Part shown: positions 8,944 to 30,168 of the stretch, piece after piece
How positions within the stretch are numbered: position 1 is the first letter of the stretch
Layout of the letters: each line of letters opens with the position of its first letter
Origin: Candidatus Woesearchaeota archaeon
GTDB taxonomy: Archaea > Nanobdellota > Nanobdellia > Woesearchaeales > SKGA01
Direction: 5' to 3'
DNA: 64,000 nucleotides
NCBI GenBank assembly: GCA_046546105.1
Contig: JBKGYN010000002.1
Coordinates: 10,913-74,912 of the forward strand
Program-made: the position numbers and the translations under genes
Notes under the pieces: generated by a model
Database searches by the model: none
What the model saw: the letters and a program-made list of their open reading frames with translations, nothing else
What the model was told of the DNA's origin: nothing

Positions 8944-9115
8944 GAGAGGGTGCCAACACTTTTGTGTTGAGCATGTTCAAATACCAGCTACTTTTCAAGA
9001 AGAACCTGGGGACGCTGGGATTCCCTTGAACTTTGTGAGAGGGTGCCAACACTTTTGTGTTGAGCATGTTCAAATACCAGCTACTTTTCAAGAAGAACCT
9101 GGGGACGCTGGGATT
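8944..9115. repeat. tandem direct repeat (93-bp period, 79-bp perfect copies at 8944-9022 and 9037-9115), each ending with the 3'-terminal 15 nt of tRNA-Trp
   Basis: The 79-bp string gagagggtgccaacacttttgtgttgagcatgttcaaataccagctacttttcaagaagaacctggggacgctgggatt occurs twice with identical spelling; copy 2 overlaps the tRNA-Trp 3' end; a third copy of ggggacgctgggattcc lies at about 8851-8867. Confidence 0.85.
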
Positions 9116-9235
9116 TGAACCCAGATCAGCCGGTATCTTCTGAATAGATTGATAATCATCGCCTTCATAGCCATGAAGACTCATCGCTCCATCCAACTGG
9201 AGCCGGCTATTCTGCCGGATTATACTACGCCCCCG
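9101..9235 (-). tRNA. tRNA-Trp (anticodon CCA) with an approximately 61-nt intron after position 37
   Basis: Minus-strand read: acceptor GGGGGCG/CGTCCCC, T8A9, T-arm CTGGG-TTCAAAT-CCCAG, anticodon stem GCCGG/CCGGC with loop CTCCAG interrupted by an insert; the intron start TTGGATGGAGC pairs back onto GCTCCA, as expected for a bulge-helix-bulge splice site. Coordinates within 1-2 nt. Confidence 0.7.
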
Positions 9236-16017: not shown

Positions 16018-16214
16018 ATGATGATATTAAGGATCCTTCGTTGCCATAGTCCCTGCAGGAGATCTGTTGCGACTTTGCAGGGGATACTGACACTTTCACT
16101 GGGTGCTTCTTCCTTATTTAAGTTTTGTTATTTCTGGTCTTCGGTGCCCACTTGTTATTGTATTGTGTTTGCAGCACAATGTTTTTAAATACCTCTCACT
16201 GCAGACAACCTCAT

Positions 16215-18812
16215 ATGGAAGATATTGTTGTAGGGCGCAGTAAATCTGACTTGAAAAAATACGGGATGAAAGGCGCTATCTTCGTTGGTAAGCATTACAT
16301 CTCTATGGGTACCACTACAACGCTTTCTAACAATGTATATATGGACGTTGCCGGCGCTCACGTCGTTTTCATCTGCGGCAAGCGTGGCGGCGGAAAATGT
16401 CTGACTGGCGATACTCTTATCTCTCTTGCTGACGGTCGGGAAGTCCCTATTGCAGATCTTGAGCACATCGACCAGGATATTGTCGCTCTGAACGATGATT
16501 TGAAAGTGCAGCATGCTGGCAAGACTGAGTTTTTCAAACGCGAAGTCTCGAAATTACTCAACATCCGGCTACGTAGTGGCAAGGAATTGCGTTTAACGCC
16601 GGAACATCCTTTACTGACCGTTTCAGGTTGGAATGAAGCATCTGCTTTGAAAGAAGGCTCGCGTATAGCGACTCCTCGAAAATTGCCTTCATTTGGAGAA
16701 CACGACCTTCCTGAAAACGAAGTGAAAATCCTTGCTTATTTGCTTGCTGAAGGGCACTTATCCAATGGGTTTATCCTGTTCTCGAATACTGATTCGCTTA
16801 TCATGGCTGATTTCAGGAGCGCTCTTCAATCTTTTGACGCATCCTTAGATGTTAAACAGCATGGTGAAGGGTGTGTTCGGGTCATATCTTCTGGTGTGAG
16901 ACGAACAATTGTGAACTCCTCACGTAACGAAAAGGGACAATTCGGTAAAGGAGTCGTTTTCGATAAGAAATCTTCATTGCGCAAATATCTCGAGAGTGCA
17001 GGATTATATGGGTACAAGGCAGATCAACGGGTTCTTCCTGATCGTATCTTCCAGTTGCCCAAGCGCAAACTGGCATTATTCCTCAATCGTCTTTTTAGCT
17101 GTGATGGTACTATCTATCGTGATGGTAACAAGGACTCTTGGATAGTGAGCTATTCTTCAGCTTCTAAGAAGATGATCTATCAGATTCAGAATCTGTTATT
17201 GAAATTCGGTTTGCTTTCCCGCGTTCGTAAGAAGCAACAGAACGGGTTTACCAGTTATGAACTGGGTCTTCATGAAATCCATGTCCATTGGTTCCTTCAG
17301 GAAATTGGTTTTTTCGCTGATAAGAAACATCGCCAAGAACAAGCTCTTCGCAGCACTAAACAGCATAATCCTAATATTGATACGATTCCTCGAGAAATCT
17401 GGGACACGTATCGTCCGAAAAATTGGTCTGAAGTGGGTAAAGAACTCGGTTATAAGACTCCTAAATCTGCACGATCCTCGATCAGGCATTCTCCCTCTCG
17501 CCAGAAACTCGCTTGTATAGCGCGGTCAGATGGTAGTGTTGAAACAGGATTGCTTGCCGAATCCGATATCTTCTGGGATGAGATTGTTGACATCACTGAA
17601 GAGAACGGTACGTTCACCGTATATGATATCAGTGTTCCCGAGCATCATAATTTTGTTGCAAATGGCGTTATCGTCCATAACAGCTACACGATGGGTGTTA
17701 TCGCTGAAGGCTTTCACCTTCTTGAAAAGGCTATCAAGGAGAATCTTTCTGTCATCCTTCTGGACACGATGGGTATCTATTGGACGATGAAATACCCGAA
17801 CCACCAGGATAAAGAGCTTCTTGAAAAATGGGGTCTCAAGCCGCAATCGATTCCTGTCAAGATCTTCACGCCGGAGAAATACTATCACATCTACAAGAAG
17901 CAAGGCATTCCTACTGACGTTCCGTTCACGATGAATCCTGCAGACCTGGATCCTGACGATTGGTGTAATGCCTTCAGGGTCGATAAGTACAGCTCCCGAG
18001 GCATCCTCATCAACCGGACCATCCTTGATCTCAAGAAATCCGGTGAGAACTTCCAGATTCACGATATCATCAAGCGTATCAAGGAAGATCAGGATTCTGA
18101 GAAAGAGGATCGTGACGCTGTCATTTCCATGTTTCTCATGGCTGATAATTGGGGTGTCTTCTCGGAGCACGGCACGCCCCTTCACGAACTGGCTAAAGGC
18201 GGCCAGATCACCGTGCTTGACGTTTCCTGCTACGCGACCATGCCTGGTGGTTGGGATGTCAAATCGCTCATGGTAGGCCTTGTCGGTCAGCGTCTGTTCA
18301 TCGAGAGGATGGAATACCGTAAGGGCGAGGAATATGAGTCTGTCAGCAGCGCCACTAACTTCTTCAGTTCAGATGCTAAGAAAACGCAGGACATGCCTCT
18401 GGTGTGGCTTGTTATTGACGAGGCTCATGAATTCCTTCCTCGAAACGGTAAGGTCGCTTCTACCGATGCCCTTGTCACGATCATGCGCGAAGGTCGTCAG
18501 CCGGGTATTTCCCTCATTCTCGCGACCCAGCAGCCCGGTAAGATCCACACGGATGTCATGACGCAGTCTGACACTGTCCTCTCTCACCGGATCACTGCGA
18601 AGATGGATGTTGATGCTCTCGGGATGCTCATGCAGTCCTACATGCGTGAAGGCTTGACTGGTGAGCTTGACAAGCTTCCTCGTGAAAAAGGTGCTGGTGT
18701 GCTTTTCGATGATAATAATGAGAAGATGTATCCTATCAGGATTCGCCCTCGTTTCACCTGGCACGGAGGTTCGAGCCCTACAGCCGTCCCGGAGGATAAA
18801 GAAGAGCGATGA
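16215..18812 (+). CDS. HerA/FtsK-superfamily (DUF87-like) ATPase interrupted by an intein in the P-loop
   Basis: ORF 16125..18812 with probable ATG at 16215; extein Walker A GKRGGGK|S is split by the intein; Walker B VWLVIDEAHEF; LILATQQPGKIH (HerA/VirB4-type TQxP motif). Extein about 467 aa. Confidence 0.75.
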   Translation: MEDIVVGRSKSDLKKYGMKGAIFVGKHYISMGTTTTLSNNVYMDVAGAHVVFICGKRGGGKCLTGDTLISLADGREVPIADLEHIDQDIVALNDDLKVQHAGKTEFFKREVSKLLNIRLRSGKELRLTPEHPLLTVSGWNEASALKEGSRIATPRKLPSFGEHDLPENEVKILAYLLAEGHLSNGFILFSNTDSLIMADFRSALQSFDASLDVKQHGEGCVRVISSGVRRTIVNSSRNEKGQFGKGVVFDKKSSLRKYLESAGLYGYKADQRVLPDRIFQLPKRKLALFLNRLFSCDGTIYRDGNKDSWIVSYSSASKKMIYQIQNLLLKFGLLSRVRKKQQNGFTSYELGLHEIHVHWFLQEIGFFADKKHRQEQALRSTKQHNPNIDTIPREIWDTYRPKNWSEVGKELGYKTPKSARSSIRHSPSRQKLACIARSDGSVETGLLAESDIFWDEIVDITEENGTFTVYDISVPEHHNFVANGVIVHNSYTMGVIAEGFHLLEKAIKENLSVILLDTMGIYWTMKYPNHQDKELLEKWGLKPQSIPVKIFTPEKYYHIYKKQGIPTDVPFTMNPADLDPDDWCNAFRVDKYSSRGILINRTILDLKKSGENFQIHDIIKRIKEDQDSEKEDRDAVISMFLMADNWGVFSEHGTPLHELAKGGQITVLDVSCYATMPGGWDVKSLMVGLVGQRLFIERMEYRKGEEYESVSSATNFFSSDAKKTQDMPLVWLVIDEAHEFLPRNGKVASTDALVTIMREGRQPGISLILATQQPGKIHTDVMTQSDTVLSHRITAKMDVDALGMLMQSYMREGLTGELDKLPREKGAGVLFDDNNEKMYPIRIRPRFTWHGGSSPTAVPEDKEER
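16398..17681 (+). mobile_element. intein (Hint domain with LAGLIDADG homing-endonuclease domain), 428 aa
   Basis: Begins Cys (CLTGDTLISLADGREV) immediately after GGGK and ends VHN followed by Ser (+1 nucleophile); two LAGLIDADG-like motifs (LAYLLAEGHL, LNRLFSCDGTIY) in the middle. Confidence 0.75.
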
Positions 18813-20782: not shown

Positions 20783-21805
20783 TCAATTGTGCAGTTTGAA
20801 ATCGACACAGACCCGATACGTCCGTGGCGCGTGCTGCCCTGCCTTGACAAAATCGAGAATCTCGTACTCGCGCCCTGCTTTTTTGCAGTGCTTATCGATC
20901 TCTTCTGTCGCTTTATGGAATTCGTTCTGGTGGTAGAAGGCATACATGTGAACTATCGCTCCTTTGCGCGCCGCTTGCAGAGTCGCATCAAGGAACTCTT
21001 CAGCGGTCTTGGGCAGTGGCATGACGATCCTGTCAAAGGTCTTGTCCAGTTTTGGCACGACTTCCCTGACATCCCCGCAGTAAAGTTTTACGTTCTCGCA
21101 CTTGTTTCTCTTTATATTCTCAACTCCGTACTCGTGCCCTGTCGGGTTGATCTCCACTCCTATGATCTCCTTGGCATCCGTTTGCTTGCTGAACACGCAC
21201 GGATACGGTGCAGCTCCTGAAAACATCACCAGGATGTCTTCTCCTGCCTTTACCTGCTCGGCGATTCGCTTCCTCTCCGTTGATAACCGTGCTGAGAAAT
21301 AGACCTCTTCAACATCCACTTTCAGGGTGCAGCCATTCTCCTTGTATTCAGCAACTTTTGTCTCCTTCCCAGCCAAGTATTTCATCGCCTGCGTCCTGTA
21401 TACACCGTCGTGCTTGCTTCCTTTTGACAGCACTGTCTTGACAAGAGGGTTTGCCTTGAGAAGTGTCGTTGCAATCTCTTTTTCCTTATGTTCGAGTTCT
21501 TCAGGAATCTCTATGATTGCGATGTTGCCGACAACATCATACGCGGTTTTTGCAAGATCGAGCTCCTCTTCAGCGAGCACTTCTCCCAACGCTTCACGCA
21601 ACGGCACTGCTTTGACATTGTTCTTATGCTCGTTGAGCTCATAGTCTCGAGCCTCATAGTCTCCATCGTACTTTTGATTCACTGGGAAGATGATGTGTGT
21701 CTTGTCTCTCCGTGGCCGATAACTAGTATCAAGCATCTCCTTCTCGATGAGGTATCGCTTGGTCTTTTCAGCCTCTTGCAGCGGTACTTTGATTCCTAGT
21801 GCCAT
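20783..21805 (-). CDS. trm5: tRNA (guanine37-N1)-methyltransferase Trm5 / TYW2 family
   Basis: Met-10+ like class-I MTase: VEEVYFSARLSTERKRI, DILVMFSGAAPYPC, NIKRNKCENVKLYCGDVREVV, DRIVMPLP. Confidence 0.8.
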   Translation of the reverse strand: MALGIKVPLQEAEKTKRYLIEKEMLDTSYRPRRDKTHIIFPVNQKYDGDYEARDYELNEHKNNVKAVPLREALGEVLAEEELDLAKTAYDVVGNIAIIEIPEELEHKEKEIATTLLKANPLVKTVLSKGSKHDGVYRTQAMKYLAGKETKVAEYKENGCTLKVDVEEVYFSARLSTERKRIAEQVKAGEDILVMFSGAAPYPCVFSKQTDAKEIIGVEINPTGHEYGVENIKRNKCENVKLYCGDVREVVPKLDKTFDRIVMPLPKTAEEFLDATLQAARKGAIVHMYAFYHQNEFHKATEEIDKHCKKAGREYEILDFVKAGQHAPRTYRVCVDFKLHN

Positions 21806-21838
21806 CGCTCCCTCAAGAATTGGTCTTGTTTTAAATAC

Positions 21839-22774
21839 TTACTCGTTGAGCTGTTCCATGATCCTTGTAATCGTCGCTTCATCTTCAGCTTCTCTTACCT
21901 CGGTTTTTCTTCTGCTCGCTCCCTTGCTTCCCGAAAGCATCCAGCACGCGTGGTCTTTGAGCTGTCCGAGACTTTTCGGCACTTGGTTCCGGAAATGCTT
22001 GTAGAATGTTTTGAACACGCTCTGTCTCTTTATATGCGGTGTTGGTTCCGAGTCCAGTGCAGCTGCTATTTTCGTGAACATGCTCGGGTCATCCCTTGCA
22101 GTTCTTCCAAGCATCACGCCGTCCGCATCTCCTTGCTCCAGTAACTTCTTGGCATGTCCTGGCTTGTTGATATCCCCGTTTGCGATCACGGGTATCTCTG
22201 TGAGTTCTTTCAGCTTCTCGAAACACGCCCAGTCTGCCGCGCCCGTATATCCTTGCCGTACCGTCCGCCCATGGATAGTGATCGCGCTCACTCCCTCTTC
22301 TTGAGCCATGCGTCCAATCTCTTCAAACGTTATTCTCTTATCATCGAATCCTTTTCGGATCTTGATTGTCACCGGCTTCTCGGTGACCTCTCTCACTGCT
22401 TTGATGACACGTCTCATGAGATGCGGGTATGATAATAAATAACCACCTGCCTTGCGTCCGAGCACCTCTTTGAGCGGGCAGCCGAAATTCAGATCGATAA
22501 CATCGACGTATTCTTCCACATCCTGGGCGAGCCTTGCTGCCACTTCTGGTATTGCCGTCATGATCTGGAATGCCACGGGCGTATCAATCTCATGTAACCG
22601 TTTCATATCATAGAAATTGCGCTCGCTATCCTCGATCGCTTGCGTGACCACCATGCCTGCCTTGTAGTCGGCACAGGTCTTGAGAAACGCCTCGCAGCTA
22701 ACCCCTTCCATCGGTGCTGCGATTGTTGGATGCTTGAGAGTCACGTTCCCGATCTGTAATGTTCGGCTCATCAT
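21839..22774 (-). CDS. tRNA-dihydrouridine synthase (Dus family, TIM barrel flavoenzyme)
   Basis: AAPMEGVS, DLNFGCP, ITIHGRT, IPVIANGDI motifs. Confidence 0.8.
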   Translation of the reverse strand: MMSRTLQIGNVTLKHPTIAAPMEGVSCEAFLKTCADYKAGMVVTQAIEDSERNFYDMKRLHEIDTPVAFQIMTAIPEVAARLAQDVEEYVDVIDLNFGCPLKEVLGRKAGGYLLSYPHLMRRVIKAVREVTEKPVTIKIRKGFDDKRITFEEIGRMAQEEGVSAITIHGRTVRQGYTGAADWACFEKLKELTEIPVIANGDINKPGHAKKLLEQGDADGVMLGRTARDDPSMFTKIAAALDSEPTPHIKRQSVFKTFYKHFRNQVPKSLGQLKDHACWMLSGSKGASRRKTEVREAEDEATITRIMEQLNE

Positions 22775-27432: not shown

Positions 27433-28577
27433 CCTTCATTCTCCTCGCCGACCAGTTGGACGCTGATATAATAGAATGAATTGAAAACTATCTGCACTCC
27501 AAGGATGAGTAGTGTTAATAAGATGATGCCTGCTCGCAGCTTCTCGATCCCGCCAAAGCCTGAATTCATCCACTCTACTACTATTGTTATCCCTATGATT
27601 ATGGGTGTGAGTACAAGGGCTCCTCCTGTCAGCAATCCTTTTTCCAGCGTCAGCCTTTTCTGGAGCCATTCGATGAATGCTCCATTATCATGATACTTGT
27701 TTGCGGCAAAGACCTTTGCGAAATAGCCTGTGATCAGCATCTGAAACCCTGTGATCGTAAACAGGCTTCCGATAAAAAGCGGGTGTGTGTGAAGCGTTAA
27801 GGTGCCGATCTGCACGGGTCCTGTTGCTAGCAGTCCTATGAGCAGAATTCCAATGAGAAAGATAATCATTCCGGGTAACAGGAATATTGTTGTCGGGCTG
27901 AAAAGGAGCATGAACCTCAAGTGTCTCCATCCGTCATTGAAACTATCGAGCTTTGAAGGCGTCTCTCTCGCTTTGTATCTGATCGGGAGCTCTCCGATGT
28001 TCAGCTTACGCTTCGCGGCCTTTATCACCATTTCCGTGGCGAATTCCATTCCGGGACTTGCAAGCTCCATTCGTTCAAGCTCTTCTCGCCTGATGAGCCG
28101 CATCCCGCAATGGACATCTCGCACCTTGCTCTTGAAAAGCATTCGTGTGAGTCCTGAAAGCAGCGGGTTGCCTATATGCTTGTGCAGCCCAGGCATCACT
28201 CCTTTTTCCAGCTCATACTTGAACCTGTTTCCTATCACCATATCGAGTTTCTCTTGCTCGAGATGTTTGTAGAATCGTTTGAGCTCTTTGAAATCATACG
28301 TCCCGTCACCATCTCCCATGAACACGAACCGTCCTTTCGCTTCCCGTATCCCTTTCTTATAGGCGTTACCATACCCTTTCTTTTCTTCGAAAACGACTCT
28401 TGCCCCTGCTTCTCTTGCTTTTCTTGCAGAACCATCTGTGCTGTTATTATCGATCACGATCACTTCATAATTTGCGTCGAGTTCTTTGGCACTCTCGCTA
28501 GCCTGCTTCACGCATCGTGCAATTGTCTGTTCTTCATCCAGGCAGGGTATGAGGATGCTTACGTCCGTATCATTCAT
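27429..28577 (-). CDS. GT2-family polyprenyl-phosphate glycosyltransferase (Dpm1/GtrB/ArnC-like) with C-terminal TM helices
   Basis: VSILIPCLDEE, VIVIDNNSTDGS, FVFMGDGDGT (DxD), followed by 3-4 TM helices; 4-nt overlap with the GT4 gene. Confidence 0.8.
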   Translation of the reverse strand: MNDTDVSILIPCLDEEQTIARCVKQASESAKELDANYEVIVIDNNSTDGSARKAREAGARVVFEEKKGYGNAYKKGIREAKGRFVFMGDGDGTYDFKELKRFYKHLEQEKLDMVIGNRFKYELEKGVMPGLHKHIGNPLLSGLTRMLFKSKVRDVHCGMRLIRREELERMELASPGMEFATEMVIKAAKRKLNIGELPIRYKARETPSKLDSFNDGWRHLRFMLLFSPTTIFLLPGMIIFLIGILLIGLLATGPVQIGTLTLHTHPLFIGSLFTITGFQMLITGYFAKVFAANKYHDNGAFIEWLQKRLTLEKGLLTGGALVLTPIIIGITIVVEWMNSGFGGIEKLRAGIILLTLLILGVQIVFNSFYYISVQLVGEENEG

Positions 28578-28640
28578 GATGTGGGTAAGTTTTGTTGTTG
28601 TTTAAATATGTATTTGTCTAGAAAAATAGAAAATAAAAGT

Positions 28641-28800
28641 GAGCCCGCGGAGACTTTCATGCTGGCGCATTCGGTCGTTATCGACCTTGCTCGCCAACTA
28701 TTTGAACTCCGGACCACACGATTTCTTTCACTGACGTTCGGAACATTACCGGGCCGTCAATGTATCAGTCGTGCACTCCACCAGGCTAAGCTACGGGCTC
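28641..28800 (-). tRNA. probable tRNA (anticodon GAT, Ile) carrying two insertions: an approximately 40-nt intron in the anticodon loop and an approximately 47-nt insertion between T-loop and 3' T-stem
   Basis: Minus strand: GAGCCCG-TA-GCTT-AGCCTGGTG-GAGT-G-CACGA-CTGATA-[insert]-A-TCGTG-TGGTC-CGGAG-TTCAAAT-[insert]-CTCCG-CGGGCTC; all stems pair; the D-arm is a near copy of that of the adjacent tRNA-Asn; lies 6 nt downstream of tRNA-Asn on the same strand. Confidence 0.5.
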
Positions 28801-28806
28801 AAAATG

Positions 28807-28878
28807 CGCCTCCGGCCAGATTCGAACTGGCGACCAATCGGTTAACAGCCGATCACTCTACCACTAAGCTACGGAGGC
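28807..28878 (-). tRNA. tRNA-Asn (anticodon GTT)
   Basis: GCCTCCG-TA-GCTT-AGTGGTA-GAGT-G-ATCGG-CTGTTAA-CCGAT-TGGTC-GCCAG-TTCGAAT-CTGGC-CGGAGGC-G; canonical cloverleaf, no encoded CCA. Confidence 0.85.
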
Positions 28879-29276
28879 ATGTCGATTTCATTCCGCTACT
28901 GGAGCGTTAGCGAATCATAGCCATCGGGACAGTTTCGAAATCCTGAGGACTCGGGCGAATTTCAGATTCGAATGCGACTGACTGAAATCAGCTCCCTTAA
29001 GCTACGGATACATATTCTTCTGTTCAGGGCTTGAGCAACTTTGTTGCGAAACCTCTTCGTTGCGCCTGGACAAACGCAGCCAGACGAATCTCCTCGTAGG
29101 ACTTATTCTCTTTTTATAAATTTAACGCGCCAGCGACTTCACATTCATTTATAAAACGCCTTTATTGTTCATATTTGGCAGTGGTTATGTTTTCAGAAAA
29201 CTTTAAATAAGAGTTGTCGAGCTATAGAATTAATATAGCGATACTTTATAGTTTATGACTGTGTTGGTGTGAGGAA

Positions 29277-29540
29277 ATGACTACAGATGTTTCGAATAAG
29301 ACGGTATTGATTCTTGTCGTCCTTGCTGTTATTGTCTCTACTTTAGGGACCTTTACTGTAGTTCACACCGTTAACCAGCAGCAGGATGCTTCCGCACTCC
29401 CTGATGATGATGGTTTTGATGGTGGAACCAGTGGCGAAGTGAGGATCGGCATTCAAGAGCCTGCAGACGTGCCTGAAGCTACTGGGCAAGTCCTTCTAGA
29501 GATATATGAACCCGAAAACGATAATGGTGGTGTGAATTAA
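29277..29540 (+). CDS. small secreted/membrane protein with pilin-like N-terminus, member of local paralog family
   Basis: MTTDVSNKTVLILVVLAVIVSTLGTF has the same N-terminal pattern as ORFs 29542 and 31936; acidic C-terminus. Confidence 0.45.
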   Translation: MTTDVSNKTVLILVVLAVIVSTLGTFTVVHTVNQQQDASALPDDDGFDGGTSGEVRIGIQEPADVPEATGQVLLEIYEPENDNGGVN

Positions 29541-29541
29541 C

Positions 29542-30168
29542 ATGGCAATTTCAAACAAGACATTGAGTGTGCTGCTCATCGCAGCGATCGTGGTCTCCGT
29601 TGGTGGAACCTTTTTCAGCCTTATGATGCTTAATACTCCGACCGGACCGACCGGTTTCAATACCCAAGAAGAGGGTGAAGTTATCCTGAACGTTCCGGAA
29701 TCCTTATCCATCACCCTCGAGGACAGCAGCATTGATTTCGGCGATTGTACGCCTGATACTACTGACACCATCTATGTAGATAGTTTCCAGGGAGCGGGAG
29801 ATGTTGATAATAGCAACTGTTCGGATACGGGATCTTTCCCTGATAACATGACGCTTGTGAACAACGGTAATGTTGATGCTCTTGTCAATTTGACAACCTC
29901 TGATAACGCATCAGCTTTGTTCGGCACCACTGGTGATAATGGGTTTGCTTACAAGGTCCAGAACCAGTCTTCAAACCCTGGTTGTGCAGGGACTATGCAA
30001 CAGAACTACTTGAACTTCACCGATCCTGCTATCGGTTATGATGTCTGTTCTAACCTGACGGCTGTTTCTGGTCAGAACAGGGTTGAAATCTTCGCTGCTG
30101 CGTGGCTAAGTCCTCAGGCGGCCGGTGGTGGTGAAGCGACCTGGACATTTGACGCTTACGCGAGTTAG
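29542..30168 (+). CDS. secreted protein, paralog family A (pilin-like N-terminus)
   Basis: MAISNKTLSVLLIAAIVVSVGGTFF; shares ILNVPESLSITLEDSSIDFGDC ... VNNGNVDA ... with ORF 31936. Confidence 0.55.
   Translation: MAISNKTLSVLLIAAIVVSVGGTFFSLMMLNTPTGPTGFNTQEEGEVILNVPESLSITLEDSSIDFGDCTPDTTDTIYVDSFQGAGDVDNSNCSDTGSFPDNMTLVNNGNVDALVNLTTSDNASALFGTTGDNGFAYKVQNQSSNPGCAGTMQQNYLNFTDPAIGYDVCSNLTAVSGQNRVEIFAAAWLSPQAAGGGEATWTFDAYAS

Follow-up and report, generated by a model that had tools for sequence, protein, structure and literature searches.

A functional gene for tRNA-Ile(GAU), divided into three exons by two short introns, is very probably encoded on the minus strand of the window, the whole 64-kb stretch of DNA analysed here from a DPANN archaeon. 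This reading was made from the DNA sequence. The architecture of the gene, the exact exon-intron boundaries, the bulge-helix-bulge (BHB) folds, the conservation of the exons and a compensatory change in the T-stem were observed directly. The first intron is located at the canonical anticodon-loop site 37/38 and the second within the T-loop at 59/60.

Gene layout, spliced product and host

Read on the minus strand from 28800 to 28640, the gene has the sequence GAGCCCG TA GCTT AGCCTGGTG GAGT G CACGA CTGATA (40 nt) A TCGTG, followed by TGGTC CGGAG TTCAAA (47 nt) T CTCCG CGGGCTC A. The following segments were distinguished.

28800..28640, minus: tRNA-Ile(GAU) gene, 161 nt, three exons and two introns
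28763..28800, minus: exon 1, with the acceptor 5' strand, the D-arm, the anticodon stem 5' strand and loop positions 32-37 (CTGATA)
28723..28762, minus: intron 1, 40 nt, canonical 37/38 site, relaxed BHB
28701..28722, minus: exon 2, with position 38, the anticodon stem 3' strand, the variable loop TGGTC, the T-stem 5' strand CGGAG and T-loop positions 54-59 (TTCAAA)
28654..28700, minus: intron 2, 47 nt, T-loop 59/60, strict hBHBh'
28640..28653, minus: exon 3, with T-loop position 60, the T-stem 3' strand CTCCG, the acceptor 3' strand CGGGCTC and the discriminator A (28640)
28806..28878, minus: tRNA-Asn(GUU), 5 nt upstream of tRNA-Ile, detected by ARAGORN and by Rfam (71.8 bits)

Seven perfect pairs form the acceptor stem (GAGCCCG/CGGGCTC), CACGA pairs with TCGTG in the anticodon stem, and the T-arm is composed of CGGAG-TTCAAAT...CTCCG, all in agreement with an earlier note on this DNA. 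That note had placed the element at 28641-28800 and had taken it for a tRNA(GAT) which appears once two insertions are removed. Both the position, here on the minus strand with the discriminator A next to it at 28640, and the identity were borne out: excision of the introns (28762-28723, 40 nt, and 28700-28654, 47 nt) yielded a 74-nt cloverleaf that ARAGORN called as tRNA-Ile(gat), and this product equals the intron-less orthologues apart from the D-loop and one T-stem pair. The note also regarded the D-arm as a copy of that of the adjacent tRNA-Asn, which is correct for the D-stem (GCTT/GAGT in both genes) but not for the D-loops, which differ. The isoacceptor is identified by the anticodon GAU within the loop CUGAUAA, a class I body with a short variable loop, and discriminator A73. 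The CCA end is not encoded.

In its interrupted form the gene was detected by ARAGORN neither with nor without the intron option, and a search with the Rfam model for tRNA likewise gave no match at E<=10. The uncut 161-mer folds as a cloverleaf with two prolonged arms, with a minimum free energy (MFE) of -70.3 kcal/mol (z = -5.97; none of 200 shuffled sequences was as good). An assembly artefact is excluded by the recovery of this interrupted sequence from four assemblies made independently, namely two MAGs (GCA_046539405.1 and GCA_046540075.1) and two from SRA. No second tRNA-Ile(GAU) was found in the 64-kb window or in the examined loci of the same MAGs. Since the only tRNA-Ile(GAU) seen is missed by both ARAGORN and Rfam, annotations of this MAG and its relatives will wrongly seem to lack an essential tRNA.

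Other types of interrupted gene were considered. The presence of two BHB-type introns between exons collinear on one strand places the gene among multiple-intron tRNA genes. A split or permuted tRNA gene was rejected, the three exons being contiguous and in order within 161 nt. A self-splicing group I intron, for which more than about 200 nt and a P1-P9 core are expected, was likewise rejected, the introns being 40 and 47 nt long and the region 28400-29300 giving no Rfam intron match at E<=10. Search by blastn-short detected no further copies of either intron in the window or in related loci, so that there is no sign of intron transposition in the available DNA. A brute-force combination of BHB search and ARAGORN gave no hidden BHB-interrupted tRNA elsewhere in the window beyond the known intron of tRNA-Trp:

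9100-9234, minus: tRNA-Trp(CCA) with a 62-nt anticodon-loop intron, Rfam 42 bits, called by ARAGORN only with the intron option

Two CGATGA motifs lie inside this tRNA-Trp intron and recall box C/C' of the C/D guide RNA carried by euryarchaeal tRNA-Trp introns.

The host is a DPANN archaeon of Candidatus Woesearchaeota/Nanobdellota, which agrees with the archaeal type of multi-intron tRNA proposed in the earlier note. The neighbouring GT2 glycosyltransferase gene is identical in sequence in two MAGs and two SRA assemblies, and carries the NCBI label 'Candidatus Woesearchaeota archaeon'; its counterpart in the closest GTDB species representative ('Nanobdellota archaeon') shows 73% identity. Among the genes called across the 64-kb window, no Pfam match was obtained for EndA (tRNA_int_endo) or RtcB. 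Two other observations concern the gene content of the window. The gene at 16125-18812 on the plus strand (about 865-895 aa) matches only intein families in Pfam (Intein_splicing and LAGLIDADG_3), and is an intein-containing gene. Genes of the Trm5/TYW2 and Dus families of tRNA modification, assigned by Pfam only, adjoin each other at 20783-22774 on the minus strand, a few kb from the tRNA cluster.

Orthologous loci and the two splicing motifs

A metagenome scan with an exon-1 pattern ending before the third base of the anticodon gave three orthologous loci, and two more were obtained via GT2 homologues. The same pattern returned nothing from viral contigs, and another locus with a GT2 homologue (L092) carried no tRNA. 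The tandem order of tRNA-Asn followed by tRNA-Ile is kept in all five orthologous loci, which differ in the state of the tRNA-Ile gene as follows.

L085, L087 and L094: tRNA-Ile without intron
L086: one 40-nt intron at 37/38
L093: likewise a single intron at 37/38, 42 nt long
Window: both a 37/38 intron of 40 nt and a T-loop intron of 47 nt

The intron-less genes have the sequence GAGCCCGTAGCTTAG..GG...AGTGCACGACTGATAATCGTGTGGTCCGGGGTTCAAATCCCCGCGGGCTCA; tRNA-Ile of L085 and L087 scored 65-67 bits against RF00005, and that of L094 was called by ARAGORN. In the MAFFT alignment the extra DNA of the window forms two clean gaps, 40 and 47 nt long, at the predicted boundaries. The lengths of about 40 and about 47 nt given in the earlier note were therefore exact; the first insertion, however, lies not after the anticodon loop but inside it. 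Exon 1 is identical to that of L085, and the other four orthologues differ from it solely in the D-loop. The predicted spliced product equals L085 except for one T-stem pair, and L087 and L094 differ at one or two D-loop positions besides. This T-stem pair is A:U in the window (the A of CGGAG and the T of CTCCG) and G:C in the orthologues, both strands being changed so that pairing is retained. As the proteins flanking the tRNA locus show only 36-73% identity to those of the relatives, the unchanged exons indicate purifying selection rather than recent separation.

Intron 2 forms the strict hBHBh' motif (two 3-nt bulges, a 4-bp helix between them, and flanking helices) with near-perfect 3-4-3 geometry. 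Its exon helix h is provided by the T-stem (5 bp), the central helix H (TTCA/TGAA) has Watson-Crick pairs at all four positions, and the bulges are AAU and AGU (AAT and AGT in DNA). After one A.A mismatch, the helix h' continues for 7 bp and is capped by the hairpin GGTCG-ATAA-CGACC. The fold containing the BHB (-27.5 kcal/mol) lies 0.4 kcal/mol above the MFE structure (-27.9 kcal/mol). By a strict BHB scan on both strands of the whole window, intron 2 was recovered independently at exactly 28700-28654. The window contains 49 BHBs as good as this one (about 128 kb times about 120 lengths), indicating that the BHB is unremarkable by itself; the chance that a motif of this grade coincides with the boundaries defined by the orthologues is roughly 6e-6. 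A gap of 47 nt is observed against all five orthologues, none of which carries a T-loop insertion. It follows TTCAAA(T), and the T/T repeat makes 59/60 and 60/61 equal by sequence; the BHB geometry decides for 59/60, since cleavage falls after the second of the three bulge nucleotides. Intron 2 is present only in near-identical assemblies of one lineage, and its BHB is without support from covariation.

Intron 1 lacks the strict hBHBh' motif and fits the published relaxed class, in which bulges of 1-4 nt and hBH/BHL forms are included (PMC3239211). Its exon helix h is 6 bp and its 3' bulge is AAA, as expected. The 8-bp helix h' begins at the first intron nucleotide, leaving a 5' bulge of 2 nt, and only two of the four positions of the central helix H are paired (C-G and U-A, then G.A and A.A). 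Only the register 39-78 keeps both the exon helix and the 3-nt 3' bulge. The introns of L086 (40 nt) and L093 (42 nt) occupy the same 37/38 site with the same relaxed architecture, and by inspection their sequences are visibly different. The presence of a single intron at 37/38 in these two loci fixes the splice register of intron 1. Folding of the junctions, a check suggested by the earlier note, thus gave BHB-type motifs at both, a strict one for the intron of the T-loop and a relaxed one for that of the anticodon loop; the note's statement that the introns occupy non-canonical positions applies to intron 2 (59/60) and not to intron 1, which is canonical. A strict motif at the non-canonical site together with a relaxed motif at the canonical site is a small oddity of this gene. 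A strict-specificity alpha4 endonuclease would not be expected to cut intron 1, given its weak H and 2-nt 5' bulge.

Upstream of the tRNA pair, a candidate promoter was read directly from the sequence, and related motifs were located in three orthologous loci.

29105..29127, minus: putative archaeal BRE/TATA element CGTTAAATTTATAAAAAG (CGTTAAATTTATAAA), presumed to function as promoter
L086 ~2520-2540, L093 ~709-730 and L094 ~2546-2570: BRE/TATA-like motif of the relatives

In L086, L093 and L094 the motif CGTTAA(A/G)TTTATAAA is separated from the downstream tRNA-Asn by about 27-60 nt. In the window the distance is about 235 nt, so that either the leader is long or some 190 nt were inserted in this lineage. 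tRNA-Asn(GUU) and tRNA-Ile are probably co-transcribed.

In archaeal tRNA splicing, EndA cuts within the bulges of the BHB and a ligase of the RtcB type joins the exons. For the gene described here, a precursor would be transcribed together with tRNA-Asn, probably from the BRE/TATA element at about 29105-29127. Each insertion would prolong one arm of the cloverleaf and present both of its splice sites in a bulge-helix-bulge. EndA would then cut at four bulge sites, at 37/38 (the 40-nt intron with the relaxed BHB) and at 59/60 (the 47-nt intron with the strict 3-4-3 BHB), and the host enzyme would tolerate the relaxed motif of intron 1. The three exons would be joined by an RtcB-type ligase and the ends trimmed; CCA, because none is encoded, would be added afterwards to give the 74-nt tRNA with the anticodon loop CUGAUAA.

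Traces of recombination and alternative readings

About 190 extra nt lie between the promoter element and tRNA-Asn in the window, and these contain a tRNA-Asn-like fragment.

~28949-29008, within 28881-29013, minus: tRNA-like fragment GTATCCGTAGCTTAAGGGAGC...GTCGCATTCGAATCTG, between the promoter element and tRNA-Asn

The score of its alignment to tRNA-Asn was 37, against a mean of 18.5 (sd 3.6, maximum 35) for shuffled sequences. The fragment gave no Rfam match at E<=10, its fold was insignificant (z = -0.91), and the orthologous loci have no counterpart of it. Its interpretation as a third tRNA, split or heavily interrupted, at ~29008-28949 was rejected, the brute-force search with BHB and ARAGORN giving only a chimera with the real tRNA-Asn. 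The fragment is probably a decayed tRNA duplicate or a recombination scar.

Two pilin-like genes, encoding 87 and 208 aa with the N-terminus M..SNKT followed by a hydrophobic helix, were observed near the tRNA pair, at 29277-30168 of the window, 55-946 of L085 and 1706-2594 of L087. In the window, L085, L093 and L094 they lie upstream of the tRNA pair in divergent orientation; in L087 they follow it on the same strand. The arrangement in L087 indicates that the tRNA pair or its neighbourhood was inverted in one lineage.

Downstream of tRNA-Ile, second copies of its 3' end were found in four relatives, each located some 100-120 nt beyond the tRNA.

L087 1401-1429 and 1520-1548; L094 ~2779-2795 and 2888-2904: direct repeats of the tRNA-Ile 3' end
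L093 ~1081-1094; L005 1-12 and 94-107: decayed repeats of the tRNA-Ile 3' end

The copy is exact in L087 and L094, running from T-loop A57-A59 to the discriminator at 119 and 109 nt, respectively, downstream of the first, and is decayed in L093 and L005. It spans the last 17-29 nt of the tRNA and extends into a few trailer bases. Such a direct repeat has the signature of an att-type duplication by integration into a tRNA and hints at mobile-element activity at this site; no integrase was found in the examined DNA of the repeat-bearing relatives. L005 (JBNJHD010000036.1), the closest GTDB relative, has a contig that breaks inside the tRNA and opens with the 12 nt of exon 3, TCCGCGGGCTCA. Exon 3 of the window and its downstream flank align with the second 3'-end copy of L005, not with the first.

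In addition, five relatives (L085, L087, L093, L094 and L005) carry the T-loop/T-stem once more in inverted orientation, as an 11-nt stretch (GGGATTTGAAC and variants) some 40-50 nt downstream of the tRNA-Ile gene. The conserved inverted motif GGATTTGAAC(A) is the reverse complement of the T-loop/T-stem sequence GTTCAAATCC of the tRNA, and may represent an inverted tRNA fragment or an arm of a recombination site. It was not found downstream of tRNA-Ile in the window. In L094, the region ~2833-2899, which includes the spacer and the second copy, appears by eye to form a BHB of its own, with h GGGAT/ATCCC, H TTGA/TCAA, bulges ACA and TGA, and, after one mismatch, h' GCTTG/CAAGC, in the same layout as intron 2 of the window. 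Since the counterparts in L087, L093 and L005 do not form this BHB, it may be due to chance.

These repeats raise a question of origin that is compatible with the gene being spliced. Intron 2 may be a remnant of the integration of a mobile element at the 3' part of tRNA-Ile, the downstream duplicated 3' end having become exon 3 and the 47-nt leftover spacer, with an acquired or retained strict BHB, being spliced out. The second copies, exact in two relatives and decayed in two, are consistent with this origin, as is the match of exon 3 and its flank with the second rather than the first copy of L005; the 5' boundary of the repeat adjoins the 59/60 intron site, and a comparable model has been put forward for Caldiarchaeum (PMC3293823). 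However, local alignment of intron 2 with the spacers of L094, L087, L093, L005 and L085 was no better than that of shuffled controls, and the matches picked out by eye (TTGG..AGCAA in L094 and AATGC.CCAGC in L093) were rejected on the same ground. The positional orthology with the second copy is accounted for equally well if the repeats simply recombined and the intron was gained later and independently. As intron 2 lacks significant similarity to the spacers, its descent from an integration scar is speculative, and we regard this origin as rather unlikely. If it were true, the orthologues with zero, one and two introns would form a stepwise series leading from mobile-element scars to non-canonical tRNA introns.

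The element might instead be a disabled tRNA-Ile pseudogene, in which two insertions stay unspliced while a functional copy is located elsewhere in the genome. The BHB of intron 1 is of the relaxed type, and the locus bears other signs of rearrangement, such as the tRNA-Asn-like fragment upstream, both of which would suit such a pseudogene. Against it, no change has accumulated in the exons in comparison with orthologues, although the proteins encoded next to these have diverged to 36-73% identity, and the sole T-stem difference is compensatory. Both insertions lie exactly in BHB-type folds, one of them strict, and the 37/38 intron is common to two other lineages, whose loci show no tRNA-Ile copy besides the one carrying it. 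We therefore judge a pseudogene to be very unlikely and prefer the functional, spliced gene. Excision of intron 1 in another register to give another anticodon, either tRNA-Ser(GGA) by a 35/36 intron or Phe(GAA) by a 36/37 intron, is hardly credible: several 7-nt loops are possible in this region and ARAGORN proposes a 35/36 intron and tRNA-Ser(GGA) when intron 2 alone is removed, but both registers break the exon helix and the bulges of intron 1, the variable loop of the body is 5 nt, unlike that of the class II tRNA-Ser, the anticodon loop of the intron-less orthologues is CTGATAA, and the intron of L086 is compatible only with 37/38.

Comparison with known interrupted tRNA genes

Multiple-intron tRNA genes of archaea are said to form the class of Sugahara et al. 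2007/2008. The gene of the window shares with this class more than one short BHB-flanked intron, one at the canonical 37/38 and one at a non-canonical site, and the failure of standard finders to detect it. It differs in its host, a Woesearchaeota-labelled DPANN MAG, and in carrying two introns against up to three elsewhere. Such genes, which are prominent in Thermoproteales, have been listed for Crenarchaeota, N. equitans, M. kandleri, M. thermautotrophicus, Korarchaeum and ARMAN-1/2 (PMC4033280, Table 1). The earlier note had restricted multiple introns at non-canonical positions to a few archaeal lineages; the list is longer than that and already includes DPANN (PMC4033280, PMC3239211, PMC5829648). 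We found no published description of this gene or of the tRNA set of this lineage. As doubly interrupted tRNA genes, introns at 59/60 and raised tRNA disruption in DPANN are all already published, the gene is not surprising to specialists, and nothing here overturns current understanding.

With respect to the T-loop intron, the closest likeness is found in ARMAN-2 (Candidatus Micrarchaeum), in which a 59/60 intron of pre-tRNA-Cys(GCA) is cleaved in vitro by the epsilon2 EndA and pre-tRNA-Pro(GGG) carries T-loop introns at 53/54 and 59/60 (PMC3239211). Common to both systems are the 59/60 site, a DPANN host and the use of the T-stem as exon helix of the BHB. In contrast to the ARMAN-2 Cys intron, which is 13 nt long with a relaxed hBH motif, the 59/60 intron described here measures 47 nt and has the strict hBHBh' motif, the relaxed one being found at the canonical site. 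With regard to enzymology, the gene predicts an EndA that accepts a strict BHB at a non-canonical site together with a relaxed BHB at the canonical site.

For tRNA-Thr(GGU) of Caldiarchaeum subterraneum, one-intron and two-intron alleles and a stray 5' tRNA fragment have been described and attributed to a mobile element (PMC3293823). Orthologous tRNA genes in different intron states (zero, one and two here) and nearby tRNA fragments (an Asn-like one upstream of the window's tRNA pair, and second copies of the Ile 3' end in the relatives) are the points of likeness; the fragments, repeats and inversion at the tRNA-Ile locus are signs of recombination, as in the Caldiarchaeum model (PMC3293823). 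On the other hand, the states observed here belong to diverged lineages rather than to one population, the locus contains no recombinase or element, and no sequence similarity ties the intron to the duplicated segment. The six orthologous loci, with near-identical exons, zero, one or two introns, and in several cases duplicated 3' ends, provide a small comparative set for intron gain and loss.

The survey by Kaneta et al. took in Pacearchaeota, Woesearchaeota and Nanohaloarchaea (PMC5829648). DPANN lineages with an alpha4 EndA carrying an L3 loop were associated with increased tRNA gene disruption, and unidentified disrupted tRNA genes that need manual curation were predicted explicitly for DPANN (PMC5829648). 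That survey gives proportions per genome and does not describe this gene, which belongs to the same superphylum and is of the kind predicted there. For genome annotation, it provides an instance of the problem of unidentified disrupted tRNA genes in DPANN (PMC5829648).
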